Shown here: piece after piece, positions 19,504-50,562 of the stretch
Numbering within the stretch: the first letter of the stretch is position 1
Layout: each line of letters opens with the position of its first letter
DNA from: Eledone cirrhosa
Lineage: Eukaryota
Length of the DNA stretch: 64,000 nt
Reading direction: 5' to 3'
Assembly (NCBI GenBank): GCA_964016885.1
Contig: OZ024740.1
Location: 201,190,001-201,254,000 of the forward strand
Position numbers and translations under genes: made by a program
Notes under the pieces: model-generated
Seen by the model: the letters and a program-made list of their open reading frames with translations, nothing else
Database searches by the model: none
Told to the model about the DNA's origin: nothing

Positions 19504-19510
<7 letters not shown>

Positions 19511-20260
19511 AAAAAGAGATGAAATCGAAAATGCAACTGGAGGCTTATTTTTTTTTTAAATATATATATTTATTTGGTTCCTTTACCGGTTTCGCAGTTC
19601 TTCTGCTTTTCAAACGGTGAGTTGAGATGGAGGGTCTGTGGTTTTTCTCACATCTGGTTGGTCTCTGAATGTTACTTGTTTTATATGGAAAAAGTGGCTT
19701 GAAATGCCAGGTTTTTCGAGAAGTAATTTGATTGGTTTGTCAATAATTATAATAAATTTCGCGTTACAATAGTTCTTCAAATAAGAGGGGGGAGCTGTCA
19801 CAGGTTGTTTTTTCATATATGAGTGTTTGAATTTCTTTTTACTTGAAAAAAGGGGCTCACGAAGGCCAACCAAAAAAAAACCTTCGTGAGCCCCTTTTTT
19901 CAAGTAAAAAGAAATTCAAACACTCATATATAAAAAAACAACCTGTGACAACCCCCCCCCCCCTCCCTCTTATTTGAAGAACTATTGTAACGCGAACTGG
20001 CGCGAAATTTATTATAATTATTGACAAATCAATCAAATTACTTCTCGAAAAACCTGGCATTTCGAGCCACTTTTTCCATATAAAACAAGTAACATTCAGA
20101 GACCAACCAGATGTGAGAAAAACCACAGACCCTCCATCTCAACTCACCTTTTGAAAAGCAGAAGAACTGCGAAACCGGTAAAGGAACCAAATAAATATAT
20201 ATATATTTTTTAAAAATAAGACTCCAGTTGCATTTTCTATTTCATCTCTTTTTCTTTATA
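19504..20260. repeat. Palindrome (about 360-bp arms, 15-nt centre 19866-19880) with a hammerhead in each arm
   Basis: Arms are reverse complements with few differences; the right arm continues to about 20305. Confidence 0.96.
20147..20184 (+). ncRNA. Minimal type I hammerhead, U3-A8 core variant (mirror copy 19580-19617 on -)
   Basis: CCTT-TTGAAAA-GCAG-AAGAA-CTGC-GAAAC-CG-GTA-AAGG; palindromic ACCGGT stem III; AATAAA at 20190-20195. Confidence 0.8.
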
Positions 20261-20409: not shown

Positions 20410-21120
20410 ATTAGAATTAGAATTAGAATTAGAATTAGAATAATATCTAAACATAGGAATGACCCAGCAGATAGGCAAATCAGAGAGGCCAGTGAAATAG
20501 AAATTAGAAGACCAAAGCTAAACAGAAAGAATGAGTGGAACAACAACAACACCCAAACAAACAACACTGACCTAAGAGAAGTATAAATAAGTAAATAAAA
20601 TTAAATAAAATAAGATAAATAAATACATACACAAGCACAATAACAACAAGCACATAAACACACACTAGTCACCCAGCAGACACAACACTATACACACTAG
20701 TCACAGATCACACATAACACTATACACACACGCAAACGCATGCGCAAAGAAGACAAAATAAAATAAGATAAACAAACAAGCAAATAAATAAATAAATATA
20801 TAGACAGACTGAATAAAAAATGGCGTAGACATACAACACAACAGGAGGAACAATGAATATAACACCACTGACGATGTTGCAGATGTGCAACGAAAGATTT
20901 ATGTAAATTATGTAAACTATATATATATATATGTGTTTGTGTCTATATTGTATCTGTATTATTTTTGACCGCCGGTCAGTCAATGGCAACATTGAGGACC
21001 GATTAAGTTAGATCGCAGATATAAAAGACAGCGAGAAGCGAAAACCAACCAAACAGTGAGTGTGTTCTGTTATTAATTCTGGCAATATTACGCAAATATG
21101 ACCCTCCCCAAGTATAACTA
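20410..21120 (+). mobile_element. 5'-truncated PLE family C: GIY-YIG C-terminus (20410-20586), 3'UTR, pLTR with hammerhead motif at 20864-20904
   Basis: Own translation IRIISKHRNDPADRQIREASEIEIRRPKLNRKNEW resembles PLE endonuclease ends; CTGACGA-T-GTTGCA-GATG-TGCAAC-GAAA. Confidence 0.78.
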
Positions 21121-21139
21121 TATATATATATGTATTTAT

Positions 21140-21458
21140 ATATACACAGTTCAAGAGTAAACCAATCTTAAAGGGAGAGATGGATATAGGCGAGAAGAAG
21201 AGAGATTGGTGAATTTGTTAGAAGCCAAAAGCGTAAAGGCATGTGCTCAATGTGCAGTAAGCAGTGGAAGGCAGCTAGGTGGCTGGGTTCATGCAGAGGT
21301 TAGATGCACAGAGCTGGAAATATTCATTAGTTAAGCAAACACAAGACCAAAAATTTCATAAGGAAGACGTTATTTAAAGAAAGTCAACATAGTTTCAGTA
21401 TATGTGAGGAATAAGGAGTGTAATTATAATTTAATGTAAGGAATAATAATAATAATAA
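21140..21458 (-). mobile_element. PLE-A-related pLTR, left part; resumes at 39997-40180 after the nested LINE array
   Basis: Homologous to 3128-3420; continuity shown by the inverted copy at 40186-40778. Confidence 0.88.
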
Positions 21459-21482
21459 TTTAATAATAATAATAATAATAAT

Positions 21483-24400
21483 GATTTCATTTATTAGCCA
21501 CAAGGGCCGACATGTAGGGGACAATACAAAGACAGGGACAGTGGGGGTTTACAATAAGGTCGAGTAAAAGTGCACAATGGCAAGACTAATTTAACAATGA
21601 AAATATAAAAATATAAAATAAATTATGCATAAATATAACAAAATAAATTCCCCGATAGGGGGTGGACGAACCTGGGGTGATTCGGGTACCCCACCAATCC
21701 TGAACCACCCTGCGCTTCTAGGGCACCCAGGGAGAGCACCCCTCTCCTCAAGTTAGCCAGCCTATAGGCGCATGGTCAGAGTAGGCCCATTCACACGAGC
21801 CATTCTCGCCACATTCACCCACCTTTTAGCAAATGTACTGGTGGGGGGGAGCATTTCTCTCTCCACCCTCACCCTCCTTTCCAGGTGAAACTTGAAGAAG
21901 TTGATGAGGGATTGGCTGAAGAGAAAAATGTTTGTCTTTAGTCCTTTCAACCTGGTCCACCATATAATCTCTTTCGCAACTGCCACCAGACAGAGGAAAA
22001 TGTCCTGCTCTTCCTGACCTAAAGAAGGTGGCGGCTCGATCTTCACTCTTAACTCGGCCGATAGCCGGATTCGTTCCACACGCGACAGTAGCTGTTCGAC
22101 ATAACTCCACAAGTCAGTAATGCACGGACATTGGACAAGTGCGTGCAAAACAGTTTCGTCGTTCTGTGTGCATCTTGGGCAGGTCCGTCTGACAGCACTT
22201 CCGTGCCTGTAGAGTTTATCCCGAACCGGCAGTACCTCCCGGTAGCACTGCCAAGCGAGAGATTTCTGGAAATTGTCCATCGTCCCCGGCTCAAAAGCCC
22301 TCCGGTACAGACTGGTCAGTTCGACTTCGTCGAGGCCCAAAGCTTCTCCGAGTGCGTCATCGCACTTGCCCACCACTAATCCTCTATAGAACTCGAGAGT
22401 GGAAGTTCCACTGATCGCATTGCCCGCTTGGTAGAGGGCAGTGAGTGCCTGGCAACATTCCAGGTGCCAGTCACCCAGTCTCGGTCTCTTCTTGACCCAG
22501 GACTGCAGCTCAGTCAAAGAAATGAGCTGCGGAAAGGCCCGTCTGATAAACGGCGACCACACCTGTTCACCATTGAGGCAGAATATCTGGAGATGTCGCA
22601 GCCTCAACGCATGTCTGCGCATCATTAGCCACGGCACGCCCAGCCCTCCGCGTAGATGGTGCTGGCAGCAGATGGACCGCCTCACCAACGGAACTTGTCC
22701 CCTCCACAAGAATTTGAAGAGGAGCCGTTCCAACTTGACGAGGCGCGGACGGGGGCAAGGCACGACGGTTAGGCGGTAGTAGATGACGGACGCGATGTAC
22801 GCATTCGCCACCTCCGCGCGACCTTTCAGTGATAGCTTCCTCCCAGCCCATTTTTGGGTGAGACTGGCTACTCTGCTCGTTACCTCGTCCCAATTCTTTT
22901 CCACCTGGAGGTCTGGTCCGAACCAAACCCCGAGCAACTTTACCGGTCCGTCCGTCCAGCGCCCCACGGCGCTGTTGGACGGCATGGGCTTGCCTCTCCA
23001 GGTTCCGAGCTGCAAGCCCACCGACTTTTCGGGGTTAAGTTTGGCTCCTGTCAACCTTTCATATTCCTTCAGTAAGGTGCCGACCACCTCGATTTCTGAG
23101 GTGTTCGACACCATCACGGTGATATCGTCCGCATAAGCCGACACCGCCTTTCCACGTCCCGGTTCGAGCGTACAGAAGGGAAGAGAGAGGGAACCCTTGA
23201 CGGACCGATCGGGAGAGCCGAAATGGTTCCGAAAGGTGGCCATTAACCTTGACCACCGAGCGTGTGCCGCTGTGCATTGCAACGATCCAGCTTCTAAAGA
23301 CAGGGCCGAAGCCAGCTGCTTTGAGGACAAACTTCAGATACCGATGGTCGACCCTATCGAATGCTTTCGATTGATCTAAATTGATCAGTGCCCCACCGAA
23401 GCCAGGTTTACACCCTACCCTCTCTATGATGTATCGCATGAGGTGGAGATTGTCGTGTATGGACCTGGCTGGGATTGCGCAAGTTTGCGCCTCCCCAACC
23501 AAATCCTCGACGACAAGCGCCAATCTCTTTGCTAACACCTTGGCCAAAATCTTAAACTCTGTGTTGAGCAGAGTTATGGGCCTGAAGTTGTCTAATGTAT
23601 CCCTCTTGTTCTCGTCTTTCCTTATCAGCGTCACCACTCCCCTGCTCACAGAACTGGGAATACTGCCATTCTGCTGCCAGTTGCAGTAGAGGGCTTCGAG
23701 GAGTTCGGAGAACAAGTCTGGCATATTTACGTAAAGCTCGTAGGGCAGGCCATCCAAACCGGGTGACTTGCGCCTCATGCAGCCGACAAGAGTGTCATGA
23801 ATTTCGGCTGAAGTAATCGGCCTTTCGCAGCGCTCAGCGTCGACCGTCGAAATGCGCGGCAAGCCGTCAAGGTAGGGACTGAAATCCGCTACTCTCTCTG
23901 ACTCGCCAATCTCCCTGAACAACCGAGCAAAGTGCTGGCGAAAGGCCTCACACATCCGCTTGGAATCGCTTATCTCGTGTCCGTCTCGGTCCGCCAAAGA
24001 CCGAATTGTGGTTTTATTACCACACTGCGCCTCCGCCACGCGGGCCCATCGAACAGCTTTAGTTCCCTCGTTTCTCAGCGCACGCGCCTTAGCTCTGGCA
24101 ATGCAACCTTCGTGTTTGGCGTTGAAGAAATGGTCTAATGCCATTCTCGCCGCTAGCACGTCAGTTGCAATGCCACTACAAATAGCCTCGTCTAACTTAT
24201 CTACCAGCTCCCCCTCCTTTCTATTTTTCTCTAACGCTAGTTCTTTGCTGAACTCTATCGAAGTTACTCTAATCTCCCTTTTGAGAGCCCCCCACCATCT
24301 GTTGTTGATGATCCCCCGTCAACTTTTGCTTAACTAAATTGTTGACTCGGTCCCTGTAAGCCTTACGTGCCGGCAATGACATGTTCAGCTTCCAGTAACC

Positions 24401-26070
24401 CGGTCCTAACCTACGCGTTTTATTTAGGTCGACCGTACAGATCACAAATTTGTGATCTGAATAGGCGAGCGTTTTAAAAAGTGGACAGCCCACACTATTT
24501 CTATCTATTTTCCTAATGAAGATCCTGTCTATATACGATCTAGATGACCCCATTCGGTTGGTCCATGTCCATACTGGCACATTGGGGAAATCTAGTCGAT
24601 ACCTGTCAGACAGTTGGAACTGGCTGAGTAGGTGCTTGAGGCTTTTGCACCCCCCGCTCCTATCGGCTACTCCCACACAATCCCAGCGTGCGTCTAAGAT
24701 GCCATTCCAGTCCCCCGCTAACAGTAAAGGGCGAGACGTACCCAGAAAGGTCTCCAGGCGCCTAAAGAAGTCAGGTCGTCCGGCCCCTGTAGGGGCGTAG
24801 ACGGCCAGCAGTCTAAAGGTACCACCTTCGCTACTGCTCACATCCAAGACCACCAACTTACCGTCCGGGTCCCGGAAGATCGACCTTACCTCGAGATCCA
24901 GTCCTTTCCTAAACAGCACTGCCACCCCACCCCCCATTCCCGGCCTGCTAACAGATGCGAAGATCTGATAGTCGTCGAAAATGGGCGCTAGTGCGCGCGT
25001 GTCGGAAATTCTGGTCTCGCTTACGGCAATCACATCCATTTCCAGCGACCGGAGGTCGTTGAGCAGGCGACCCTGCTTCCATATGTTCATTCCTGGTGGG
25101 ATGCTGGGAATGCGTACCTTCACTGTCCTTTTACCCATATAGGACGGATGCATGATAATGCGTTCCGTTCTGCAGGGGGTCACCGAGTGCTTAATAGCGA
25201 GGGCCTCGGTTTTGAACAGTACCGAGATGGTACCGAACTGTTTGCCTCTTGCTTTATACTCAATGTTACTTCCGATGTACTCCAAAGCAGCCTCTACCTC
25301 TGCTTGGCTCGCAAGTTCCACTTTTCGTGTCAGCACCGAAATACATCGAAAGAGCACCGTCCTCCTTTGCATGGCCGCTATTGCCTCGTCCGGGATGGTC
25401 AGGTTTGCCCAGGACTTCTCCCGTTTAATTAGCCTCCACGCTTTGGCCAACTGTTCGTCTTTATCGCTAATATCAATATCAATATTCAATAAGCGCTTTG
25501 TTTTTGCTGCTGCTGCAGCAAATGTGGTGTTTCTGATGCTCTTATTGTTGGTGTTGTCATACTTGCTGTTGCCACCGCCATCCTTGTTTACATTGAAGCT
25601 GTCGGTGTTATTGTCGTTATTGCTCTGAGTTGTTGTTGCGGTGGTGGTGGTGGTGGTGGCGGTGGTGGTGATGTCGTTTTCTGATGATACTGCTGCTATC
25701 ACAGAAGGTTGAGTTTTGCCTTCACATTCAGTAGAGTGGATGACAGGCATGACTGTAGCCGTCGTAGTCGTGGTGAAATCTGCAGTGGCTGCCGTTAAAC
25801 TTTTGACCTGAACGTTGTTTACCGTTTCAAGGTCGAAAATTTCCATAATTTCCTTTTGGTGGGGAAGCGATTTTTTTCGAAGTTTTTAAAAATAAATCTG
25901 AATATTCGTGCTTAAAGCCCGAATATTGAGAGGTATCCCTCTCTTTAAATCAAGATGTGTACCTTAAGTTTCGTTAATGACAAGAAAATACAAAAAAAAG
26001 ACACTTTAAAACAGCCTAAAGCTACGAACCTTTTCCGCCGCAGACTTGTCTGTCTTCACACATGTGCGGC
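21483..26070 (-). mobile_element. Tx1-clade LINE #1, internally deleted (ORF1 N-half fused in frame to APE; RT frameshifted)
   Basis: APE motifs VSETR, GGGVAVL, VYAP, GDWN, YIDR, SDH; RT KSPGLDG, FRPITLLN, LDQSKAFDRV, VRQG, YADD; C-terminal CPRC..H...C; (TAA)n at both ends. Confidence 0.95.
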
Positions 26071-26073
26071 AAA

Positions 26074-26115
<42 letters not shown>

Positions 26116-26117
<2 letters not shown>

Positions 26118-29100
26118 TTTCTTTATTAACCACAAGGGTTTACATAAAGTAGACATTAAGGACAGTGCAGGATAATACAGGGCGGTACTAATGGGCATTT
26201 CTGCGTGTAAAAAACAAAAACAGAGGATGTAACAAAAAATAACAATGAAAAATTCCCCGGAGGGACATTTGTGGAGAAAGCCCATTAAAAGACCACAGTG
26301 ACCCTGACCACCAGGGCAAGTGCCCTCTCCCAGTTTTCCACCTTTAATTTACAGACACATACTCAGAGAAGGCCCATTCATTCGGGCCATACTTACTTCT
26401 CTCACCCATCTTTCAACAAAATGCTGGGAAGAGAGCACTTCCCTCTCTACCCTGATTTTACTTTTCAAATGAAATTTGAAAAGTAAAATCAGGGTAACAT
26501 CAGTTAATCAGGGCATCACCAAAGAGGTAAGTGCTCGTCTTCAGCCCTTTCAAATGTGTCCACCATACTATCTCTTTCGCCATGGCCACCAGAGAGATAA
26601 AAACTGCCTGCCCTTCCCGGCTAAAGGAAGAGGGCGGGGCAATCCTCACGATGGACTCAGCTGATAGCTGGATCCGTCCTACACGCGACAGCAGGTGTTC
26701 AACATAAACCCACAAGTCAGCAATGCTCGGACACTGGACGAGTGCGTGCAGGAAGGTTTCGTCGCCCTGCGCGCATCTCGGACATGCCCGGCTGACGGCA
26801 CCTTCATGCTTGTAGAGTTTATCCCGAACTGGCAAAGCTCCTCGGTAGCACTGCCAGGCCAGGGATTTCTGGAAGTTGTCCATAGGCCCCGGCCCGAAAG
26901 TTCTTCCGAAGAGATTGGCTAGTTGACTTTCGTCGACGCCTATAGTTTCTCCAAGTACGTCGTCGTTCTTCCCCTCCACTAATCCCCTATAGAACGCCAA
27001 GGTGGAGTTTCCACCGATCACATTGCCCGATTGGTCGAGGGCTGTGAGCGCCTGAAGACATTCCAGTCTCCAAGCGCTCCCTCTCGGTATTCGCTTGACC
27101 CAGGACTGCAATTCCGTCAAGGAGACGAGCTGGGGAAAGACGAGTCTAGCAAACGGCGACCACACCTGATCACCGTCGAGGAAGAGGTGGAGATGTCGTA
27201 GCCTGAGCGCGTGTCTGCGCATCATCAGCCACGGCATGCCCAGCCCTTCACGTAGCGGGTGTTGACAGCAGATGGACCGCCTGAACATCGAAGCGCGTCC
27301 TTTTCACAAAAGGCGAAAGAGCAAACGCTCCAGCGCAGTCAGGCGGCGCTTAGGACAAGGTACCACGGTTAGGCGGTAATAGATGACAGACGCGATGTAC
27401 GCGTTAGCCACCTCCGCTCAAACTTTCAGGGATAGCTTCCTCTCCGCCCATTTCTGGGTGAGATAAGCCACCCTGCTCGTCACCTCGTCCCAGTTTTTGT
27501 CCGTCTGGAGGTCTGGACCGAACCAGACCCCTAGCAATTTAACCGGTCCGTCCGTCCAGCGCCCGACGACGCTGTTGGACGGCATGGACCTGCCTCTCCA
27601 GGTGCCGAGCTGCAGGCCCACTGACTATTCCTTGTTGATCATTGCTCCTGTCACCGCTTCATATTCTCTTAGTGTAGTGGCGATCGCCTCGATTTGTTTG
27701 GCGTTCGACACCACTACGGTGACATCGTCCGCATATGCTGACACGGATCCTCCGCATCCTAGTTCGCGCGGGACCCCCCTCAACGTCTCCAATTTGTGCA
27801 GTAATGGCTCGAGAGTCAATACGTACAATAGGGACGAGAGGGGACATCCTTGGCGGACCGAGCGCATGATGTTGAACGGTTCCGAAAGGTGACCGTTCAC
27901 TCTCACTACAGAGCAGATGTCGCTGTGCATGGCAGCGATCCAGCCTCTGAAAACAGGCCCAAAGCCAGCCGCCCTCAGGATTGCCGCTAGGTAACGATGG
28001 TCGACCCTATCGACGGCTTTCGACTGATCTAAATTCATCAAGACCCACCCGTGCCAGGTTCCCTAGCTACCCTCTCTACGATGTATCGCATGAGGTGGAG
28101 GTTGTCGTGGATGGATCTGTCGGGAATGGCGCATGTCTGTGCCTCTCCCACCAGACCACCAACGACAAGCGCCAACCTCTTTGCTAGCACCTTGGCCAAA
28201 ATCTTGAACTCTGTGTTTAGCAGAGTTATGGGTCTAAAATTATCTATGTTATCCCCCTTGTTCGGATCCTTTCTCAGCAGCGCCACCGCTCCTCGGCTCA
28301 CAGAGCTGGGAATTCTCCCGTTCTGTTGCCAGTTGCAGTAGACGTCCGCCAAGAGGCCTCCGAAGAAGTTTGGCATTTGTACGTAAAGTTCATAGGGCAG
28401 ACCATCCAAACCAGGCGATTTACCCCTTGTGCAGCCAGTCATTGCCTCCCGTACTTCAGCGGTTGTTATCGGCTTTTCGCAACACTCCGCCTCAGTGGCC
28501 GAAAGCCGCGGCAGTCCGTCGAGTTAGACACTAAAGTCCATCCCTCGATCCGGCCCGCCACTTCCCCCGAACAGCTGAGCGAAGTGTCGCTGAAAAGCTT
28601 CACACATTTGCCCGGGATCGAGTAGCATGCGCCCGTCGTGGTCCACCAAAGACCCGATCGTGGCTTTGTTGCCACGACGCGCCTCCGCCACTCGGGCCCA
28701 TTGAACGGCTTTCGTCCCCTGGTGTCTGAGAGCACGCACCCTAGCTCTGACAACGCAGCCTTCGTGCTTTGCATTGAAGAATTGGTCAAGGGCCAATTTC
28801 GCCGCAAGTACGTCGGTCTCGATGCCTTTGCTAAGCGCCTCGTCTAATTTTCTAACTAATTCTCCCTCTGCTCTATTTTTCTCTATTGCTAAAGCCTTAC
28901 TAAACCTAATGGACTCTATTCTAATTGCTCTTTTCAGAGCAAAGCACCACTTGTTGTTGACGATGGTCCCCGTCAACGCCCGCTTAACTAGTTCGCTAAT
29001 CCGGTCTCTGTAGGCCTTGCGCGCTGGTAAGGACGCGTTTAGCTTCCAGTAGCCGGGTCCTCGTCTATGAAGCCTATCTAAGTCAAGCATACAGATCACG

Positions 29101-31991
29101 AATTTGTGGTCCGTGTAGCTGACTATCTTGAATTGTGGACAGCCTATGTTAGACCTATCTATTTCCCTACAAAATACTCTATCTAGATATGATCTGGAGG
29201 ACCATATGCGATTTGTCCAAGTCCACATTGGTACATTCGGGAAATCCATTCGGTACCTGTCAGACAGTTCAAAACGCCTGAGCAGGTTGGTGAGACTCTT
29301 GCAACCTCCTTCCCTATCCACTAATCCCACACAATCCCAACGTTCATCTAAGATCCCGTTCCAGTCGCGCACTAACACTAAAGAGCGGGACGTTCCAAGA
29401 AAGGTCTCTAGACGCCGGAAGAAATCAGGCCGCCCTGCTCCTATCGGGGCATAGACGACCACTAACCTGAAAGCTTGCCCGTCTCCGCTGGTCACGTCCA
29501 GCACCACCAACTTACCTTCTGGGTCCAGGAAGATGGCCCGTATGGCAAGATCCAAACCTCTCCGAAAAATCACAGCAACTCCTCCCCCCGATCCCGGACG
29601 GCTGGGAGATGCGTACACATCGTAGCCGCCGAAGATCGGTGCGAAGGCCCGTGCTTCGGAGATTCTGGTCTCGATGATGGCCACCACATCTATGTTTAGT
29701 GACTTGAGGTCGTTGAGCAGGTGGCCCTGCTTCCAAGACGACCCCAAGCCACGCGCATTTATGCTGCCTATTCTGAGTGAGGTCATGTTGAAAAGGAGTG
29801 GAAAAGATGGAAAAGACCACTTACCTTACTTCTCGTAGAGGAAGGATGGTTTTTCCATCCTTTTCACTGCTTGTGGCCTCCTCAGGAAGGATGTCCTTAT
29901 AAATCCTCCAGGAGAGTGCTTGTCGGAAGTCTACGATGTCTTTGGGGAATTTTTGTTTTAGTGTCATGTACGTTTTATGTGTGATGCGAGTGATTTGTAT
30001 GTGTGGAGGTGGTGTGAATGTTTGGGTTGTTGTGTAGTCTTTTTCTGTGATGCTGGTGTTGTGTTGGATGTAGTGTAATAATTGCTTGTTGTTCAAATTT
30101 AATACTGTGTAGTGTGTATCGTTTTGGTTGTTTCGTTTTGTTTGCGTTTGTTGTGGGTTTGTTTCTGTTTCGTATTTTGATGACTTTTGTGGTGTAGGTG
30201 ATGGTGGTGTTGGGGTTAATGATGGTGATGGTGTTGGTGTTTGGGTTGATGGGGTTGGTGATGCTGGTGTGGATGGTGGCATATCTGTCCTAACTTTTTT
30301 GTTTGTTAATTTATTTGTTTCCCTCTATATTTTGTTTTTGGTGGGGGAAGGAAGAGAATTTTTTCTTTTTTGGTTTCTTTTTTTTTTCCTGATACCGTTT
30401 CCCACTCCTCGTCGTCACAATCTGTCTGCAGTTGTGATAGGCCGGGGAGTGGAAAATCCTCCACAGGCGTTAGTTTTGGTTGTGGCGTGGTGGATGGTGT
30501 AGGCGCTGGTGCTAGTTCTGAAGCGTTGGGTGGTGGTGGTGTTGGTTTTGCTGGTGATGGTGGTGTTGGTTTTGCTACTGTTGCTGGGTTTGTTGCTGTT
30601 ATAGTTGCTTCTGTTGTTGCTGCTACAGTTGTTGCTGCCATCTCTGCTACTGGTGGTGTTGATGGTTGTGTCACTGGGGTGGGTAGGAGAGGTGGCCTCA
30701 ACCTTTTAGCCTGAGGGCAGAAAGCCCTTAGGTGGGTTCCTTCACCACAAACGACACACCTAGGCCTTCTGCCCTCGACAATTACGGTGAGGTGGCTGCC
30801 GTCAGTGAGGTCTATTACTTCTGGGATCTCTTCAATGCTTTTTTGATCCGCTTGGATCAGGAGCTCCATCCCAGATCCGGTCCAGTTCTCCTGCTTTTCT
30901 TTTGCTATTGCTATTATCTTTGTGTTGGCTTCGATGCCGGCGAGGACGGCCGCTATTAGCAGGGAATTTCGATGGCCGGTGGAACGTGGGTCACCCTGAT
31001 CTTTACGAGTCTCTGGCCACAATAGCTTGGGACGAGTGTGAAGTCGTCACTTTTTAATGGGGCCATGGAGTGTTCTCTAGCCTCCTCTGGTGTTTCAAAG
31101 AACACGTCCACGGTCCATACTTCTGCCCACGTCTGATGTGGGTTTTTCTTGCCCACACATGTCCCAAAGCTTTTTGGATTTGGGACTCGGATGCCCATTC
31201 CACTCGGCGCGATTTTACATTTATTGTTCGATACGACACGGTGCATAGGCGCCGATGCTCCATTTTATTAGGTGGAGGGGTGAGGCTGACCCTGTACCCA
31301 TCTTTCTTTACCATTTGTTTGGCATTTTCTAATTCCTCCTGAGTTACCGTAAATGCTTCGCACTGTTTTGCTACTCTGGCAAAACTCAGGGTGGTTTTTT
31401 TAATGTCATTGTTGTTGTTGTTGCTATCGTTAATTTTGTTATTATTAATTTTAGTTTCAGTTGTGGTGGTGGTGACGTCAGTGAAGTTCGGTTTGGGAGA
31501 GTCCATTTTGGTTGAAATATTTCGATATCACGAGTTGATTTATTTTTTCCTTTTGTTTCTGTTGTCGCGGTGGTGGTGGTGGTGGTGGTGGCGGCTTTAA
31601 CACCTGCAGTCATTGGTAATGGCGGGAAATGAATGTCTGCCTGAGACAAATTTAAAATATTGCTAGTGCTTAAATTGTTTGTGGTGGCAAACGTAGTATC
31701 ATTTACAATGGTGGTGTCGGTGTGAGGTGTTAATTTGTGAGAAAGGCTTTCAGCTGCTTGGTGCAGTGGTGAATTAGCCATTTTTTTTTAAAAGAAATTT
31801 TTTGATAATCATAAAAAATTAAATTTTGTGCACAAGGCCCCAATCTTTTTGGGTGTCCTTTTCGGAAAACAATGTATGTGCGCTTATATATAGTTAGCAA
31901 TAAAAATTTTCCATAAATGGCAATTTTTAACAAACGGAAATAACAAACCTTTGCGGAGCTCACGATGATACGATTTACTACGTAGGTCGCC
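26116..31991 (-). mobile_element. Tx1-clade LINE #2, full length but frameshifted (ORF1 about 31780-29821 with CCHC knuckle; ORF2 29786 to about 26340)
   Basis: CVVCGEGTHLRAFC; MTSLRIGSINARGL APE start; QGCPLS, YADD; (TAA)n at both ends. Confidence 0.96.
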
Positions 31992-32029
<38 letters not shown>

Positions 32030-32039
32030 TAAAAACAAC

Positions 32040-35000
32040 AACAAAAGGAAAACCCCGTGACCAAGAAATACCGGGATTGCGGCCGGCGGGGAATAGCCGT
32101 GTCTCTAGGGGAGAACGACCCCTCTAGTCTTGGTTGACACTCGTTCTAGAAGTGGTAACACGAAATGATTACCCCTTGGCGGATAAGGATAAAACGCGAC
32201 AAAATAAAGTAAATGTCTAATGATAAAATTTCATACCGGATCGGCCGTCACCCGGGTAAAAAAGGGCCGCGTCCCTCAGAGAGGAACCAGACTGGGGTCG
32301 AAAAATCAGCTAATGGTTCAAACCTTCCCATCACTTCGGAGCTGGAGACCTCCAATAACCGGAATACTCCTATTGTTGGCCCTCCATGCTCACCACCAAG
32401 AAATCCAAAGAAAAAGAGAGAAAAATGGTCAAGAGATGATAATAAAGAAGTCCTTGAGGCTTTCTACACTGCCATGTACTACCCATCAAATACATCGAAT
32501 ACAGAGGCTATATTGACAGTAACAAACTAGCCAATATACGAAGAAATATTGTAAGAAAAAAGTTACTAACTGATATAGAAATTGATCAGATCAAGCTATT
32601 AGCACAAAGTCAGCGAAGGGAAAATGAAACATGTGTCAGTGAAAAGGAGGTAAATTGTAACACTTCGAATCCCAGGGTTGGGGCGGAATCACTGGCAACA
32701 GAACAAATTAAAGAAAAGATCGAAAAAGTGGAGGGAGTGCATGCTCAGGATGAAACTCCAAATGAAAATAATGAGATCGTAAATGATAAAGAAATGAATG
32801 AGAATGAACTTGCCAACTTGAAGGATGAAATTATGATCGAATGGATGAAAATGAAAGAATCTGACATGGGGCAACGAGACACCCTCCCTAAGATCCAGAA
32901 CTCCAAACAGAACCAAAAGATAATACATAAGACTAACATAATTCTCAAAAACATTATCATCACAAACAAACTAAACATTACTGATTTAAATCATCTCTAT
33001 TATGCATCGGCTAAAGTCACCACTCACTTATGTGGAGTGAAGATGAAAAAACAAAAGAATTCCCACAAGAAATCTACTTGGCGAGAGAACATCAATCGCC
33101 AAATAAACCTTCTCCGATCTGACATAGAAATTTTAACAAACTATAAAGTAGGTGAACATGTTAAACAAACTAAACCTAGAAAATTGAAAAGAAAGTACAG
33201 TATAAAATCAACAAGTGACATAGACATGCTGATAGAAATAATCAAGCAAAAAGTGTCGGCCAAAGCTGCTCATATAAGGCGCTTTGAAAAACGATCTAGA
33301 TTCTATAAGGATAATAATATGTTCAAAAACAACCAAAGAAACTTCTACAGAAAAATTGGTAACTCAACAATAACTGCTAAATCAACACCACCCAGGGAGG
33401 AAGTGCAAGAATTCTGGGAAAAGATCTGGGCCGAAGAAAAAGCTCATAACATACATGCCCCATGGATAGACAGACAAATGAAAGATACAGCTCACCTTGA
33501 GGAACAAATATGGGAAAATATAACAGTTGAACAGTTGCGCTTGGCTCTAAGAAAAACCAGCAAATGGAAATCCCCAGGAAAAGACAAAATACAAAATTTT
33601 TGGATAAATGCCTTCACAGAGTCTCATGAGCTGTTAGCTCAACTTTACAATGAAATAGTTAAGGAGCCAGAAAAGATACCATCATGGCTAGTTAACGGCA
33701 TTACATTCCTGCTTCCGAAGAATGATGAGACAAACAATCCCAAAAATTACAGACCGATAACTTGCTTGACCACAATGTATAAAATGTTAACATCAGTCCT
33801 AACTGAATACACATATGACCACCTGATAACAAATGACCTATTTCCCATTGAGCAGAAAGGGTGTAAACGAGGCTCATATGGCTGTAAGGATCAGCTTTTG
33901 GTTAACAAAATGATACTGGAAGATTGTCATAATAGACACAAAAATTTATCGATTGCTTGGATAGATTATAAAAAAGCATTCGATAGTTTGCCACACAGTT
34001 GGATTGAAAAATGTTTAGAGATTTTCAAAATATGCCCCGTTGTCAGGAGGTTTTTGTCATTCAGTATGAAGACATGGAAAACGACACTCCTTTTGAATAG
34101 TGAAACAAAATCACTGGAAGCTGGAGAAGTTAATATTAATTGTGGAATTTTTCAGGGTGACTCTTTATCACCGCTTTTATTCTGCATCGCACTTATACCA
34201 TTAAGTAAAATGCTCAATGAAACAAAACATGGATATAAAGTCTATGACAAAACCATTAATCACTTGTTCTACATGGATGACCTGAAACTATTTGCAAAAA
34301 ATGATGAACAATTTCAAGGGCTATTATCCACTGTGGAGCAGTTCAGTGATGACATTAAAATGGAGTTTGGACTAGATAAATGCGCCAAAGCAACGTTCAC
34401 CAGAGGAAAGCTGCTGAAGAGTTCAGACATTAATCTTGATCGGGGGAACATGATAAGAGAACTTGATCAAGGAAAAACTTACAAATATCTAGGTGTTTGT
34501 GAAGGAGACGGAATCAATCACTCGACAATGAGGGAAAGGATAAGGAAGGAATGTTACCGCAGAGTAAGAGCAATCTTAAGAACGGAATTGAATGCAAGGA
34601 ATAGGATCGATGCCATAAACACGCTTGCCATACTAGTAGTAACCTACAGTTACAATGTCATCAACTGGTCAAGCACAGAGATCCGTAGGCTCGATACAAA
34701 AATTCGAAAATTCTTAACCATGCACAGAATGCATCACCCTAAGGCAGATATAGATAGAATATATCTCCCTAGGAAAGAAGGAGGACGTGGGTTAATACAG
34801 TTAGACATTGCGTTGAAAACTGCAACAATTGGATTATCTACATATCTAAGGGAATCACATGATTGGATGATCAAACTCGTTTTGAAACACGAAAGCATCA
34901 AAAGATCATATTCCATTACAAAAGATGCACAAAGATACAGTAATGGACTACAAATTTCAGAAGTCCCATTTACTGCTGAAATGGAAAACACAGAAAAAGC

Positions 35001-35964
35001 AAAGCAGGTAAAAGTAACTGCAAAGAAAGAACTGCTACAGAAACTGGCTAAGAAATGGCAAGAAAAGCCTCTGTATGGAAAATACCCAGAGCGAGCTATC
35101 AATCCTGAGGTTGACAAAACTTTAACCCATCAGTGGTTGGCATCCTCTGGACTGAAATCGGAGACTGAAGGACTGATTATATCAGCACAAGATCAGTGTC
35201 TGCCAACAAAAAATTACCAAGCCAACATAATAAAAAATGGATGCACCCCATTATGCCGTGTATGCAAAAAACAACCAGAGACCATTGACCATATAATTTC
35301 AATGTGCAGTCCTATAGCTCCAACCGAATACCTAAACAGGCATGACAGAGCTGCACAATACATACATTGGAAAATGTGTAAGCATTTTGACCTGCCCCAT
35401 CAAAAGAATTGGTGGGAGCATCAACCACCTCCCATACTTGAAAAAGATCACATCTCAATCTTGTGGAACTTTAGCATCCAAACAGACCGAAAAATAGATG
35501 CAAACAGACCTGATATAATATTGAAAGACTTTCAAAAGAGGGTATGCCTGCTAATTGATATGTCTGTTCCAATAGACAAGAATGTATCTATAAAAACATT
35601 TGAAAAATTGAGCAAGTATAAGGACCTGGAGATAGAAATTGGAAAAATGTGGAAATTGAGAACTAAAACAATACCAGTGGTTGTAGGCGCTCTGGGAATG
35701 ATACCTAAGGGGTCTAATGATTACTTATCGCAAATCCCAGGAAACCCGCGTATAGGAGAAATACAAAAGATAGTACTAATGGGAACTGCCCATATACTAA
35801 GGAAGATTCTGTCAATATAAGTACATCACAAGTCTAAACACTAAAGATGCATGTGTGAGTATGTATGTTCTTTCTTGAACATGGCGGACCTTGTTGTCTC
35901 TTGAGGTCACTGCTTGTGACTTGGTGATAACTCGTATGAACATAAAGCAAGATAAATGCAACTG
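32040..35964 (+). mobile_element. Near full-length R4/Dong-like RLE retrotransposon inserted in (TAA)n
   Basis: 5'UTR, ATG at 32213 with KWSRDDNKEVLEAFY, frameshift or deletion near 32515, then the 1030-aa ORF; 3'UTR ends in (TAA)n. Confidence 0.95.
32728..35820 (+). CDS. R4/Dong-like reverse transcriptase / restriction-like endonuclease polyprotein (N-terminus detached)
   Basis: NYRPITCL, IDYKKAFDS, GIFQGDSLSP, YMDDLK, CRVC..HI..C, RHD, RPDI, IDMSVP, KLSKY. Confidence 0.93.
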   Translation: MEGVHAQDETPNENNEIVNDKEMNENELANLKDEIMIEWMKMKESDMGQRDTLPKIQNSKQNQKIIHKTNIILKNIIITNKLNITDLNHLYYASAKVTTHLCGVKMKKQKNSHKKSTWRENINRQINLLRSDIEILTNYKVGEHVKQTKPRKLKRKYSIKSTSDIDMLIEIIKQKVSAKAAHIRRFEKRSRFYKDNNMFKNNQRNFYRKIGNSTITAKSTPPREEVQEFWEKIWAEEKAHNIHAPWIDRQMKDTAHLEEQIWENITVEQLRLALRKTSKWKSPGKDKIQNFWINAFTESHELLAQLYNEIVKEPEKIPSWLVNGITFLLPKNDETNNPKNYRPITCLTTMYKMLTSVLTEYTYDHLITNDLFPIEQKGCKRGSYGCKDQLLVNKMILEDCHNRHKNLSIAWIDYKKAFDSLPHSWIEKCLEIFKICPVVRRFLSFSMKTWKTTLLLNSETKSLEAGEVNINCGIFQGDSLSPLLFCIALIPLSKMLNETKHGYKVYDKTINHLFYMDDLKLFAKNDEQFQGLLSTVEQFSDDIKMEFGLDKCAKATFTRGKLLKSSDINLDRGNMIRELDQGKTYKYLGVCEGDGINHSTMRERIRKECYRRVRAILRTELNARNRIDAINTLAILVVTYSYNVINWSSTEIRRLDTKIRKFLTMHRMHHPKADIDRIYLPRKEGGRGLIQLDIALKTATIGLSTYLRESHDWMIKLVLKHESIKRSYSITKDAQRYSNGLQISEVPFTAEMENTEKAKQVKVTAKKELLQKLAKKWQEKPLYGKYPERAINPEVDKTLTHQWLASSGLKSETEGLIISAQDQCLPTKNYQANIIKNGCTPLCRVCKKQPETIDHIISMCSPIAPTEYLNRHDRAAQYIHWKMCKHFDLPHQKNWWEHQPPPILEKDHISILWNFSIQTDRKIDANRPDIILKDFQKRVCLLIDMSVPIDKNVSIKTFEKLSKYKDLEIEIGKMWKLRTKTIPVVVGALGMIPKGSNDYLSQIPGNPRIGEIQKIVLMGTAHILRKILSI

Positions 35965-35993
35965 TAATAATAATAATAATAATAATAATAATA

Positions 35994-36315
35994 GAGAGTG
36001 CAAGAGAAGGAGAGGGAGAAAATTAACCGATACCAGGACTTAAAGTGGGAGGTAAAAAGGATTTGGAACTGCCATGAAGTCAAAGTGTTCCCGATTGTCA
36101 TAGGCGCACTAGGTACTATCTCAAAAGGTTTCCAGGGATGGTTAAAGAAAATTGGGCCCGCCCCGCTTTTTTGGAACGCTTCAAAAGACATGCTTGCTGG
36201 GAACAGCAAGAACCCTCCGATACGTCCTGAATATCTGAGGCTGCAGGTAGTGGCTTGATATTCATTTCAACAAACTTTCCAGTTAACTAACATCAATGAC
36301 TGAGACTCAAAGAAC
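35994..36315 (+). mobile_element. 5'-truncated 3' end of a second R4/Dong-like family
   Basis: KEREKINRYQDLKWEVKRIW..PIVIGALG; (TAA)n on both sides. Confidence 0.88.
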
Positions 36316-36333
36316 AATAATAATAATAATAAT

Positions 36334-36613
36334 GTCTTTATTGGCCACAAGAGCTGACATCAAGAAAAACATTACAGACGGCACAGAACGGTACAGGACG
36401 GTACGATGTGGGTTTTGTGCGTGTAAATATTTTTATTATTTATATAAGAAAAGAAAAAAAAGGACATAGAATCATATATATATATAAACAATAAAAATGA
36501 AAATTGAAACAATGAAAAATTCCCCAATAGCGGGGAAACCTCCGATGGTTACTCGTGGCGAAAACCACACAAAAGACCACGGCCACCCTGACCACCAGGG
36601 CAAGCGCCCTCTC
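36334..36613 (-). mobile_element. Tx1 3'UTR-only insertion
   Basis: Reverse complement of 40360-40620; (TAA)n on both sides. Confidence 0.88.
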
Positions 36614-36634
36614 TATAATAATAATAATAATAAT

Positions 36635-39600
36635 GCTTTCTTTATTAACCACAAGGGTTTACATAAAGTAGACAGTAAGAACAGTACAGGACAATACAGG
36701 ACGGTACAAATGGGCATTTCTGCGTGTAAAAAAACAAAAACAGAGGATGTAACAAAAAAGTAACAATGAAAAATTCCCCAATACGGGGGAGACTTCCGAG
36801 GCACGGAAGTGAAGAAAACCCATTAAAAAGCCACAGTGACCCTGACCACCAGGGCAAGTGCCCTCTCCTAGTTTTCCACACACTCTCTCACACATCTTTC
36901 AACAAAATGCTGGGAAGAGAGCACTTCCCTCTCTACCCTGATTTTCCTTTTCAAATGAAATTTGAAAAAGTTAATCAGGGCATCACCGAAGAGGTAAGAG
37001 CTCGTCTTCAGCCCTTTCAAACGTGTCCTCCATACTATCTCTTTCGCCATGGCCACCAGACAGATAAAAACTACCTGCCCTTACCGGCTAAAGGAAGAGG
37101 GCGGGGCAATAACACTCCGCCTCAGTGGCCGAGAGCCGCGGCAGTCCGTCGAGGTAGACACTAAAGTCCATCCCTCGATCCGGCCCGCCGCTGCCTCCGA
37201 ACAGCTGAGCCAAGTGTCGCTGAAAAGCTTCACACATTTGCCCGGGATTGAGTAGCATGCGCCCGTCGTGGTCCACCAAACACCGGATCGTGGCTTTGTT
37301 GCCACGACGCACCTCCGCCACTCGGGCCCATTGAAGGGCTTTCGTTCCCTCGTGTCTGAGAGCACGCACCCTAGTTCTGACAACGCAGCCTTCGTGCTTT
37401 GCATTGAAAAATTGGTCAAGAGCCAATTTCGCCGCAAGTACTTCGGTCGCGATGCCTTTGCTAAGCGCTTCGTCTAATTTTCTAACTAGTTCTCCTTCTG
37501 CTCTATTTTTCTCTATTGCTAAAGCCTTACTAAACCTAATGGACTCTATTCTAATTGCTCTTTTCAGAGCAAACCATCACTTGTTGTTGACGATGGCCCC
37601 CGTCAACGCCCGCTTAACTAGTTCGCTAATCCGGTCTCTGTAGGCCTTGCGCGCTGGTAAGGACGCGTTTAGCTTCCAGTAGCCGGGTCCTCGTCTATGA
37701 AGCCTATCTAAGTCAAGCACACAGATCTCGAATTTGTGGTCCGTATAGCTGACTATCTTGAATTGTGGACAGCATATGCTAGACCTATCTATTTCCCTAC
37801 AAAATACTCTATCTAGATATGATCTGGATGACCCTATGCGGTTTGTCCAAGTCCACATTGGCACATTCGGGAAATCCAATCGGTACCTGTCAGACAGTTC
37901 AAAACGCCTGAGCAGGTTGGTGAGGCTTTTGCACCCTCCTCCCCTATCCGGTAATCCCACACAGTCCCGGCGTGCATCTCAGATCCCGTTCCAGTCGCCC
38001 ATTAACACTAAAGAGAGGGACGTTCCAAGAAAGGTCTCCAGACGCCGGAAGAAATCAGACCGCCCTGCTCCTGTTGGGGCATAAACGGCCACTAGCCTGA
38101 AAGCTTGCCCGTCTCCGCTGGTCACGTCCAGCACCATCAACTTACCTTCTAGCTCCAGGAAGATGGCCCGTATGGCGAGATCCAAACCTCTCCGAAGAAG
38201 CACAGCAACTCCTCCCCCCGATCCTGGACGGCTGGGAGAAGCGTACACATCGTAGCCGCCGAAGATCGGTGCGAAGGCCCGTGCTTGGGAGATACTGGTC
38301 TCGCTGATGGCCACTACATCTATGTTTAGCGACCTGAGATCGTTCAGCAGGTGTCCCTTCTTCCATGACGACCCCAGGCCACGTACATTTATGCTACCTA
38401 TTCAGAGAGTAGCCATGTTGACTAGGATAGGAGGAAAACAAGTGAGAGGGGAGAGGTACAAAAAATAACCTGTGGCTCTTCTTTAGGAAGGGGGTGGGTG
38501 ATCCATCCCTCCGACCATTGGTTTTGTGGGTGTAGGAAGAGATGGTGTTTTTGTTGTTGGGGATGGTGATTTCTCTTCTGTCACTGTGTTCTTTGTTTGT
38601 TTGTCTGCTCCAGTTGCGGGGCACAGCGTGGGGAGAAGGGGAGGGCGCGTGCCTGTTTTGGTAATTTTGGGGCAGAATGCCTTAATGTGCGTCTTGTCAC
38701 CGCATCCATGACACCTTGGGCGCCTACCTTCGACAGTCACGGGTAGATGGCTGCCGTCGTCCAGGTCTATTACATCGGGGATGGCTTCAACGCTTTCGTG
38801 GTTTGCTTGGATGATTAGCTCCATCCCCGACCCTGTCCAATTTTACTGACGTTGAGTATGGTTGTTGAATCTTCAACGTCAGCGAGGACGGCTGCCGTCA
38901 GCCACGCCATCTCCACTGAGGGTGGAACCTGGCCTACTCGAACCCTCACGACTCTCTGGCCGCAATATGTGGGCATCATTGTGATTTCGTCGCTGCGGAG
39001 TGGTGCAATGGAGTGTGCTCTGGCTTCCTCTGGTGTAGCGAAGAGCACACCCACAGTGCCATATCTCGATCCCCGGGCTATATATGTTTTCTCTGCCCAG
39101 ACGGCACTCATAGCTCTTTGGATCTGTGACTCCGTTCCCCGTTCAACTCGCCTGGATTTTGATCTGATCGTGTGATAACTGACCAAACACAAAAGCTTGT
39201 TTCTTATTATCTCAGCTGGGCGGGTGAGACTTACCCTGTGTCCGGTCTTTTTAACCAAGACCTTTGCTTGTTTTATCTCTTCGTTAGTGATGTGTACTTG
39301 TTCAAAACTGTTTGTCGCTTTAGCGAAAGACGTGTTTGTTTTGATTTGTGTTGACACGTCACTAGCTTTGTCTTTGTTGCCGTCGACGGTGTTTTTGTTT
39401 GTTTCTTTTTCCTCTGTGTTGCTGCTGTTATAGTTGTTGTTCTTTGGGTTCTTTGTGGTTGTTGCTGTTTTTATTGTTATTATTGGGGTGGTAGTGGTGT
39501 TTGATTTCTGTAAGACAGGAAATTTTTCGTTATAATTTTCACTACTGCTACTACAGTTCCAGTGACAGCTGCTGCTGAAATCATTATCGCTGTCGCTGTC

Positions 39601-39920
39601 GTTGCTGCTGCTGTTTCTCTTGTTTTTTACTTTGCCTTGTGATTGGGTGGAATTGGCTGTTCCACCCTCTGAACAACTCGCTGTCCCTCCCTGTGGACAA
39701 TTTTCTTTGTCCGACATGATTTTTTTTTATTTGGGGTTTATGGTTGTAAATAAAAGAAAATTTAGCCCTCAAGGGCGCGAGATACAGTTTTATAAAAACC
39801 ACCTCCTTTGACAGAGGGGTTCTTTAACTACACACCGATGTAAAATATATTATTAGAACTTTCGATAACTCGTAAAAATCCAACCAACTTACTCTGCCGT
39901 AGTTACCGCCGTTTTGTAAT
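36635..39920 (-). mobile_element. Tx1-clade LINE #3: ORF1 (39717 to about 38460) and APE present, RT domain deleted at about 37110
   Basis: CHGCGDKTHIKAFC knuckle; ORF2 near-identical to #2 but jumps from the equivalent of about 28480 to about 26643. Confidence 0.94.
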
Positions 39921-39927
39921 GATAACC

Positions 39928-39963
<36 letters not shown>

Positions 39964-39965
<2 letters not shown>

Positions 39966-39999
39966 TTTCATTTATTAGCCACAAGGGCCGACATGTAGG
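39964..39999 (-). mobile_element. About 35-bp stub identical to the 3' terminus of Tx1 #1
   Basis: GATTTCATTTATTAGCCACAAGGGCCGACATGTAGG also at 21483-21518. Confidence 0.85.
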
Positions 40000-40185
40000 A
40001 GTGTGATTATAATAATAAAGAGTGTAATTATAGTTTAATGTAAGGAATGTTAATAATGTTAATAATGATAATAATAAGGTCCGTTTTCAATTGTTGCGCT
40101 ACTCCATATAATGTTTCTGGATCAATTGATTATAGATAATTATTGATCTGGTTCAGATGAAGATAAGTAAATTAGGTAAAAAAAA

Positions 40186-40772
40186 TTATTATTATCATTA
40201 TTAACATTCCTTACATTAAACTATAATTACACTCCTTATTATTATAATCATACTCTAGCAAGTTTGTTGAAAGGTGGGTGAATGTAACGAGAATGGTCCG
40301 AGTAAACGGGACCGCTCTGAATATACGCCTGTAGTTTGAGTAATGGAAAAATTGAGAGACTGCGCTTGCCCTGGTGGTCAGGGTGGCCGTGGTCTTTTGT
40401 GTGGTTTTCGCCACGAGTAACCCTCGGAGGTTTCCACCCTATTGGGGAATTTTTCATTGTTTCAATTTTCATTTTTATTGTTTATATATATATATATATG
40501 TTTCTATGTCTTTTTTTTCTTTTCTTATATAAATAATAAAAATCCTTACATGCACAAAACCCACATCGTGCCGTCTGTAATGTTTCTCTTGATGTCAGCC
40601 CTTGTGGCCAATAAAGAAATCATTATTATAATCACACTCCTTATTATTATTATTATTCCTTACATTAAATTATAATTACACTCCTTATTCCTCACATATA
40701 CTGAAACTATGTTGACTTTCTTTAAATAACGTCTTCCTTGTGAAATTTGTAGTCTTGTCTTTGCTTAACTAA

Positions 40773-40778
<6 letters not shown>
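40186..40778 (+). mobile_element. Inverted copy of the PLE-A-related pLTR (right arm), interrupted by a Tx1 3' end
   Basis: Reverse complement of 21321-21458 joined to 39997-40077. Confidence 0.9.
40256..40621 (+). mobile_element. 5'-truncated Tx1 3' end with 18-bp TSD
   Basis: Encodes SKFVERWVNVTRMVRVNG; ATTATTATAATCA(T/C)ACTC at 40238-40255 and 40622-40639. Confidence 0.93.
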
Positions 40779-40842
<64 letters not shown>

Positions 40843-41133
40843 CAGTGGCGGACTGGGTCTAAAAATATTGATTGCCAGGAGATGAAGGGGGCCCACCTAC
40901 ATATAGAATGCTATCATTTAATTTTTATAATGAATAAATAACATTTTCGAAAAATACATAAGTGGAAACAAAACAGTGCAGTCAAATCTTTGTGTAAAAA
41001 TATACCTTCTCCAATAAAAAATATTACGTATTTTGCGAAATCCAAAGACTTTCAATAATGGCCAAAAGTCGACCCTAAATATTGCTAATAGCTCTTGGAA
41101 AGCCATAAACGATAGCACATATTTTTAACTTTG

Positions 41134-41427
41134 ATTTTGAAAGTAGGTTTATAATTATCAATTTTCATTATACTTTTATAGCTGTCTCGGTGGCCTAGTT
41201 GGAGGAATCATAGACGGTCCTGGTCTGAAGTTCGATCCTGGTTGGGAGTAAGGTTCCCAGTAAACCTTTTCAGTTTTTTTTCTATTGGTTGTAAAATAAA
41301 AACTGAAAAAGGTTACATGTAACTCTTGACCAGGATTGAACCGAAGGCCAAGACCTCCACAGCGAGGCCACAGAGACAACTACGAACATCTGATGTAAAT
41401 TCATACCTATAAACCTACTTTCAAAAT
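41134..41427. repeat. Imperfect palindrome with perfect 20-bp ends containing two convergent tRNA-like units
   Basis: ATTTTGAAAGTAGGTTTATA / TATAAACCTACTTTCAAAAT; A/B-box-like motifs on both strands. Confidence 0.8.
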
Positions 41428-41520
41428 TTTCAAAACAAAGTGTTGTGGTGTCGTTCATGTCTTTCTGAATGTTATTGCTCCTACTTAAGGTCGACGTCTA
41501 AAGCAATCGTTTTGTTTCAC

Positions 41521-50517: not shown

Positions 50518-50562
50518 ATTGCCCTGATGAGTCCTTAATAGGACGAAACATTGTTGGCTAAT
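50518..50562 (+). ncRNA. Minimal type I hammerhead of PLE-B (identical sense copy at 45399-45443 on -)
   Basis: GCC-CTGATGA-GTCC-TTAATA-GGAC-GAAAC-ATT-GTT-GGC, then AATAAA. Confidence 0.88.

Follow-up and report, generated by a model that had tools for sequence, protein, structure and literature searches.

The window analysed here is a stretch of 64,000 nt from the genome of Eledone cirrhosa (G000:C1:201190001-201254000 in our handles for assembly and contig; the assembly spans 3.0 Gb), and positions below are those of this window. At 21140-40778 it carries an array of retrotransposons lodged in a Penelope-like element (PLE). A preliminary description had read the array as seven long interspersed nuclear elements (LINEs) between TAA tracts inside the left arm of a pseudo-long terminal repeat (pLTR) palindrome, with the (AAT)5 site retained in the other arm. 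Self-comparison, open reading frames (ORFs) and Pfam show that the array is real and that these counts, strands and coordinates hold: seven LINE pieces alternate with as many AAT tracts, and together they interrupt the left arm of a Penelope pLTR inverted repeat. The five L1/Tx1-type pieces all lie on the minus strand and both Dong/R4-type pieces on the plus strand, as had been described.

Reading from the left, a (TA)n tract (21119-21144), with a flank of the same type at most other copies, leads into the outer part of the left pLTR arm (21141-21441, PLE sense being the minus strand here). This arm is 85.6% identical to 3129-3422, a pLTR adjoining minus-strand pieces of a PLE-type ORF that match a 911-aa ORF (E = 4e-81 and 7e-38). 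Tract 1, (AAT)6 TT (AAT)7 at 21442-21482 (all tracts are given on the plus strand), combines a remnant of the target with the tail of Tx1A (21483-26073, minus), an L1/Tx1-type LINE that keeps its 5’ end and, by Pfam, domains for an apurinic endonuclease (APE), a reverse transcriptase (RT) and zf-RVT; it is frameshifted, and an internal deletion has removed the end of ORF1 and the start of ORF2. Tract 2, (AAT)14 at 26074-26115, joins the 5’ end of Tx1A to the 3’ end of Tx1B (26116-31991, minus), a full-length, frameshifted LINE of the same type that is 73.7% identical to Tx1A over 3.4 kb. Tract 3, (AAT)11 at 31992-32024, lies head-to-head between the 5’ ends of Tx1B and Dong1 and is therefore the tail of neither. 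Dong1 (about 32025-35964, plus) is a single-ORF LINE with RT, a zinc knuckle and a PD..D nuclease of the restriction-like endonuclease (RLE) kind; it is without some 950 nt of its 5’ untranslated region (UTR), and a short deletion near 32505 breaks the N-terminus. The 9.7 units of tract 4, (TAA)9 at 35965-35993, form both the Dong1 tail and the 5’ flank of Dong2 (35994-36315, plus), the 5’-truncated 3’ end of a second Dong family whose longer copies share 41-46% protein identity with Dong1. Tract 5, (AAT)6 at 36316-36333, stands tail-to-tail between Dong2 and Tx1D (36334-36614, minus), a piece of Tx1 3’ UTR only. Tract 6 (about 6.7 AAT units, 36615-36634) is followed by Tx1C (36635-39927, minus), an internally deleted Tx1 copy with a different 5’ module and 93.5% identity to Tx1B in the APE region, and tract 7, (AAT)12 at 39928-39963, by a 36-nt 3’ stub of the Tx1A family (39964-39999, minus) that meets the pLTR through a 3-nt AGG microhomology. 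Every long LINE copy in the array is damaged. Transport of the stub with the PLE can be ruled out, as the stub-pLTR junction was found only here among 54 matches.

Beyond the stub, the inner part of the left arm (40000-40180, minus) holds a decayed 3’ half of a hammerhead-like motif, and the palindrome turns at about 40180-40186. The inner right arm (40186-40255, plus) ends in the first copy of an 18-nt target-site duplication (TSD, 40238-40255), which together with a second copy beginning ATTATT (40622-40639, one mismatch) encloses Tx1F (40256-40621, plus), a 5’-truncated Tx1 copy to which Tx1D is 87% identical. We considered whether Tx1D and Tx1F could be a short interspersed nuclear element (SINE), and rejected this because Tx1F encodes the C-terminus of ORF2. 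The outer right arm (40640-40778) contains the counterpart of the split site, an empty (ATT)5 at 40643-40657, and gives way to the right-hand (TA)n flank (40776-40842). In reverse complement the right arm reads G(AAT)5 AAGGAGTGTG, and the outer parts of the two arms differ at 4 of 122 positions. Thus the (AAT)5 is indeed empty, as first proposed, but the arm itself is not free of insertions: Tx1F, which had been overlooked, occupies the next tract, one of two units, 21 nt from the empty (AAT)5. The tract that was first invaded need not have had five units, as empty sites of the array’s pLTR subfamily span about 3 to 20 units.

The minus-strand LINEs carry PF03372 (APE), PF00078 (RT) and PF13966 (zf-RVT) and have the architecture of the Tx1 group, with two ORFs of which ORF2 comprises APE, RT and a C-terminal zinc-binding domain. 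An intact related ORF2 at 56439-59705 matches L1 ORF2p better than R2 (E = 1e-46 versus 1e-19). The elements are putatively Tx1 rather than L1 proper, a label that comes from the preliminary description; among the 120 proteins listed from a homologue search that returned 210, almost all unnamed, none was labelled Tx1, and the Pfam, PDB and atlas searches named neither the Tx1 nor the Dong clade. Dong1 has a 1120-aa frame with RVT_1 (Pfam), and its translation reads C-x2-C..H..C and PD..D..K..KY, motifs that we take to be a CCHC knuckle and a restriction-like endonuclease. Its best PDB matches are R2 proteins (E = 1e-27). Architecture and target together make it a probable member of the Dong/R4 clade. 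Three further observations concern these families. A single Tx1B-type ORF2 is combined with no fewer than three distinct 5’ UTR/ORF1 modules (window 29800-31991 and 38430-39927; the loci that we call T6-T10). About 140-100 nt upstream of the match, copies of the Dong1 5’ UTR contain both a 3’ fragment of a SINE and brief internal runs of AAT, so that the LINE transports a piece of SINE along with potential targets. Finally, contigs from a run coded as another organism match Dong1 (32054-35952) at about 99% over 1.2-1.5 kb, which points to a close relative or a recent exchange.

The host of the array resembles the PLEs with pLTRs of the Neptune/Nematis type, for which an inverted truncated copy beside the pLTR, a pLTR hammerhead, a bias to (TA)n and a Cys motif before GIY-YIG are described in the portion of PMC8557442 available to us. 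It has inverted pLTR arms, (TA)n flanks and a hammerhead-like motif, and its copies sit in (TA)n and occur as inverted pairs, as in PLEs. It differs in being pLTR-only, with one decayed hammerhead half, and in having an AAT run that is targeted by other retroelements. RT- and GIY-YIG-like motifs can be read by eye in the PLE-type ORFs, for which Pfam and PDB gave no match. A custom pattern (core, 10-bp stem II, GAAA, palindromic stem III, GUA) found 39 distinct hammerhead-like matches in pLTR copies and none in 1.8 Mb of shuffled sequence. Rfam did not list this pLTR motif, which is decayed in the array’s own arm; its hammerhead matches, below the gathering score, fall only in another PLE (45399-45443 and 50518-50562), and its miRNA matches on microsatellites were set aside as chance. 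At window 6123-6250 and in many pLTR copies stem II of the motif is closed by a loop of about 75 nt. On the PLE strand, 8 nt separate the motif from the ATT tract that follows it, and in one subfamily a core U is changed to C. Other palindromic elements lie at 19508-20256, 41098-41465 and 45244-50612, the last being the PLE with the 911-aa ORF and the Rfam hammerhead matches.

AAT tracts are targets of these LINEs and not only their tails, as seen at copies elsewhere in the genome. For each 5’ end we took the best 30 of 40 scored matches and excluded the window copy (n = 29); there were 462 candidates for Tx1A and 1566 for Tx1B, and 3’ flanks of Tx1 were taken from the sampled blocks described below. 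Among these best 30, 27 of 29 Tx1A 5’ ends lie directly downstream of at least 9 nt of perfect ATT phase (median 21 nt), and all 29 Tx1B 5’ ends have at least 15 nt of it upstream (median 35). Dong1 5’ ends stood at AAT tracts in 20/29 cases by script and in 24/29 after variant 5’ UTRs were read; four of the others are fused to other sequence and one has a tract about 40 nt away. In the sampled blocks Dong1 3’ ends are followed by TAA. Orientation is equally regular. The nearest neighbour at 58 Tx1 5’ ends was a Dong element in opposite orientation (29) or a co-oriented Tx1 (16) or SINE (7); at the other six no neighbour was recognised. The polarity rule was obeyed at all 52 junctions with a recognised neighbour (p = 4e-16). 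The asymmetry of TAA/TTA would account for the single orientation in which each family is found. The preliminary description had left room for copies elsewhere without a TAA tract at the 5’ side, their tracts being tails only, or in random orientations; the tract is there, and the polarity is fixed.

These flanks bear on two other ways of building an array. Nested transposable elements are common in large genomes, and insertion might be unbiased, with arrays persisting as harmless sites and tracts being tails only. Such passive accumulation is effectively refuted by the 5’ flanks (tracts at 56 of 58 Tx1 ends) and by the polarity of 52 junctions out of 52, and we give it next to no credence. 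Alternatively, arrays could arise in one or a few events, if the reverse transcriptase, on reaching the 5’ end of an RNA, jumped to the repeat tail of another. Tx1 copies often follow each other head-to-tail (16/58 junctions), and the 36-nt stub, which has similar counterparts elsewhere, is identical to the Tx1A 3’ end, as such template jumping could produce. However, it cannot yield the head-to-head Tx1/Dong junctions that make up 29 of the 58, where the tract lies between two 5’ ends and so cannot be the tail of either element, and neighbours come from different families with unequal divergence. As a general account we find it quite improbable, although it may explain single pairs such as Tx1A and the stub.

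The tracts at the junctions are also of the size expected from duplication of the target. The shortest ones at Tx1B (15-18 nt) agree with the 18-nt TSD of Tx1F and with the TSDs of the SINE. Together with the tracts at 5’ ends, this means that one insertion likely turns one tract into two.

The SINE had been named as a further user of the tracts. There is none within 21140-40778; elsewhere, however, it shares target and TSD size with Tx1. In the window it occupies the same tract of another pLTR copy (3426-3620 and 3670-3850), and it does so in many other pLTR copies elsewhere. A TSD of at least 12 nt was found in 31 of 65 full-length copies (median 16 nt; mean of a mismatched-pair control, 2.4), and 24 of these 31 begin with ATTAT. 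SINE and Tx1 have, by eye, similar terminal stretches of about 25 nt, the same polarity and TSDs of like size (median 16 nt versus 18 nt for Tx1F). With 3’ end, target and TSD in common, the SINE is putatively mobilised by Tx1. In a 1-Mb sample (below) it gives 193 matches per Mb, 118 of them including a 3’ end, and it is often arranged in tandem between copies of the TSD.

Is the Penelope host needed? It had been proposed that a PLE-borne microsatellite serves as a self-renewing landing pad shared by these elements. That the tracts are targets stands, and renewal is likely, but any TAA tract will serve. In a sample of 1 Mb (20 blocks of 50 kb at round coordinates, with two edge sites extended) we counted 19 3’ ends of TAA-targeting LINEs at nine sites, none of which lies in a pLTR; both pLTR loci of the sample are empty. 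Three multi-LINE arrays in the sample measure 6.6, 11 and 19 kb, the 19-kb array being without a PLE. Fifty tracts of at least five units include 18 that adjoin TAA-targeting LINEs, 11 that adjoin only the SINE and 21 that adjoin neither. The LINEs cover at least 33 kb, half of it from one array.

The host would have a stronger role if the pLTR context, its chromatin or its transcription were what the LINEs recognise, arrays then being mainly Penelope passengers. We examined 28 other arms of the array’s pLTR subfamily and dropped two that end before the tract. By hand count, 12 of the remaining 26 carry a LINE, 8 more carry SINE only and 6 are empty. LINE occupancy (12/26) exceeds that of 35 hand-merged tract loci of the 1-Mb sample (7/35) at a borderline p = 0.049 (Fisher), and restriction-site-associated DNA (RAD) reads from a different run contain junctions of Dong1 5’ ends with the pLTR tract. 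Against this, the difference fades when only the first pLTR tract is counted (10/26 versus 7/35, p = 0.15), and a pLTR lies within 1.5 kb upstream of just 2 of the 58 Tx1 5’ ends, in addition to the 0/9 sample sites above. In a sister subfamily whose tract is interrupted by one ATT unit (for example window 1201-1393, 3129-3422 and 5760-6550), no recognised Tx1 or Dong LINE is found in 29 copies, and a SINE or SINE stub in 10 of 29; these copies look younger, so that age is a confounder of this comparison. Enrichment inside pLTRs, which had been suggested as a check, is hence borderline for one subfamily and absent in its sister. Recognition of the pLTR itself seems unlikely to us. Arrays frequently start at the pLTR but do not require it.

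Recurrence at the pLTR could still reflect copying of one ancestral array. Among 11 occupied pLTR loci that we followed, array content varies and lengths reach 36 kb. First Tx1B copies at four of these loci are 96.0-97.6% identical, as are unrelated copies, and the elements that follow them differ. The arrays at pLTR loci are therefore independent, and inheritance by PLE copying is ruled out. The longest (T7, G000:C3:153124001-153164000) spans 36 kb and comprises about nine LINEs; it occupies the same pLTR site, and on the far side of the array the PLE runs on into its ORF. At three of the 11 loci (T1, G000:C1:65441001-65461000; T10, C1:109179001-109229000; T11, C9:21262001-21292000) the PLE centre is absent and both arms hold arrays, which run in opposite polarity. 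The point where polarity switches joins inverted copies of a single LINE family at two of these loci, T10 (two Dong1 copies of 97.7% identity) and T11 (two Tx1B pieces); a polarity switch was also seen without a PLE (block C1:300000001). In these three cases the centre was likely lost through collapse of a long inverted repeat.

Altogether, we consider it very probable that the pile-up grew by repeated, independent target-primed insertions, primed on the AAT strand in the case of Tx1 and the SINE and on the ATT strand in that of Dong; the target would be renewed by TSD, tail and slippage. The junctions, and what is known of target-primed reverse transcription, suggest how this would proceed. 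The Tx1 APE would nick the AAT strand, and the AAT-3’OH would pair with the AUU-repeat end of the RNA and prime reverse transcription; a second nick about 16-19 nt away would then duplicate five to six units. The Dong RLE may do the converse, nicking the ATT strand and using an RNA that ends in UAA, possibly with a TSD of its own. Each insertion would likely leave a TAA tract on both sides, and so one more target, while tails and slippage would lengthen the tracts. The Penelope pLTR would be one of several sources of a starter tract, its AAT run beside the hammerhead-like motif being uninterrupted and often long in this subfamily. Identities between the window copies and their nearest relatives range from about 94.6% (Tx1F, Tx1C) to 98.6% (Dong1), a coarse measure which suggests that the insertions were spread over time.

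Several points weigh against this account. The dating is biased: relatives of Tx1A, Tx1B and Dong1 are top matches, and the values for Tx1D and Tx1F draw on only four relatives. Two of 29 Tx1A and 5 of 29 Dong1 5’ ends have no adjacent tract. Some empty pLTR tracts, free of any LINE, are 16-20 units long, so that slippage alone makes long tracts. At one pLTR locus (T9, G000:C5:87530001-87580000) a 17.8-kb segment comprising array end, PLE remainder and flank is repeated in tandem at 99.97% identity, which may be a very recent duplication or an assembly error. Lastly, no listed piece among short contigs and RAD reads, the latter mixing thousands of copies, bridges a locus-specific junction, and the exact structure in the window consequently rests on the assembly. 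Long reads could have been mis-joined through the AAT tracts, the joins falling in microsatellites. However, the tracts are only 18-42 nt long, the two halves of a single pLTR flank the array and match the empty arm, and dozens of independent loci obey the same rule, which makes an assembly artefact highly improbable.

Most ingredients of target-primed growth on a shared microsatellite are known. Dong elements of the R4 clade (Bombyx Dong, DongAg, Biomphalaria DongBg) target TAA microsatellites, according to the accessible text of PMC3812793, and PMC13282606 lists Dong-R4 among the recently active elements of Octopus vulgaris; the words “nested” and “target” do not occur in its main text. The elements described here share the TAA target, the TAA tail and a single ORF with R2 RLE proteins as best solved relatives; they differ in that two Dong families share their target with APE LINEs and a SINE in multi-family arrays of 6-36 kb. 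Within the Tx1 group, the passages available from PMC4494074 describe Kibi in (TC)n, Koshi in (TTC)n, crocodilian elements in (TTCC)n/(TTTC)n and Tx1-Mar with SINEU, a SINE sharing the Tx1 target, and tandem insertions that sandwich a TSD, formed as one copy after another entered a host transposon. The present elements likewise include APE LINEs with repeat targets, a SINE with a common target and TSD-sandwiched tandems. In contrast, (TAA)n is not among the Tx1 targets named in those passages of PMC4494074, and the opposite strand is taken by an RLE partner. The Eledone cirrhosa genome also has a sister Tx1 lineage that targets (TATC)n.

Two LINEs with opposite strand preferences have a telomeric parallel in TRAS and SART, which are both R1-clade APE elements. 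In Bombyx they occupy one asymmetric repeat, (TTAGG)n, in opposite orientations, and SART1 needs at least three repeats (PMC7265360, in part). Here, by comparison, APE and RLE clades share interstitial and mostly self-made microsatellites across the genome. Endonuclease control of target choice has been reported for TRAS/SART (PMC7265360) and with L1 loop grafts (PMC1950540), and repeat targeting as a survival strategy is in print (PMC4640811), each as far as the sections available extend. The available parts of PMC4824008 and bioRxiv 10.64898/2026.07.22.740005 held nothing decisive on precedent. In the literature found, much of it accessible in part and including text on octopus repeat annotation, a TAA-targeting Tx1, or one sharing its target with Dong and a SINE in mixed arrays, is without precedent; Kojima and Fujiwara 2004, Repbase or the supplements of PMC4494074 and PMC13282606 may hold such a family.

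A wider reading, which we offer tentatively and with slightly less than even confidence, is that two Dong families, a highly abundant SINE and a TAA-targeting Tx1 lineage not reported before together constitute an autocatalytic niche throughout the genome, one that makes up a few percent of the DNA and much of the AAT microsatellite (29 of the 50 sampled tracts lie at their junctions). Penelope palindromes would seed paired pads of opposite polarity, on which both arms grow multi-kb inverted repeats of the same LINE families that collapse and delete the Penelope centre. The (ATT)n and (TATC)n Tx1 lineages, differing in endonuclease hairpin loop and tail, would be a natural pair for the study of microsatellite specificity. 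Such target-site recycling would cross clades, an APE LINE, an RLE LINE and a SINE feeding on one trinucleotide repeat and remaking it, and would confine many insertions to earlier insertions. It could thereby help to explain hotspots of transposable elements and the abundance of AAT microsatellites in this kind of genome, and may be a source of large inverted repeats and deletions. The window locus is not special in this respect: pile-ups recur across the genome, and by extrapolation it is one of thousands.

Two minor observations on Tx1 remain. Very short 3’ stubs (36-47 nt) recur in arrays (39964-39999, the locus T4 and the read joint 21526-35186), which suggests frequent early abortion of reverse transcription. 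The (TATC)n-targeting sister lineage, Tx1G, has the same 3’-terminal motif as the ATT-targeting copies, with a different repeat and a different endonuclease hairpin-loop sequence, a contrast confounded by phylogeny; as Tx1 lineages with different repeat targets, the two would form a matched pair for separating endonuclease from RNA-tail control of specificity. Tx1G forms a parallel array in (TATC)n within the window (54040-62146) and is also present in blocks G000:C1:50000001-50050000, C2:30000001-30050000 and C4:200000001-200050000.

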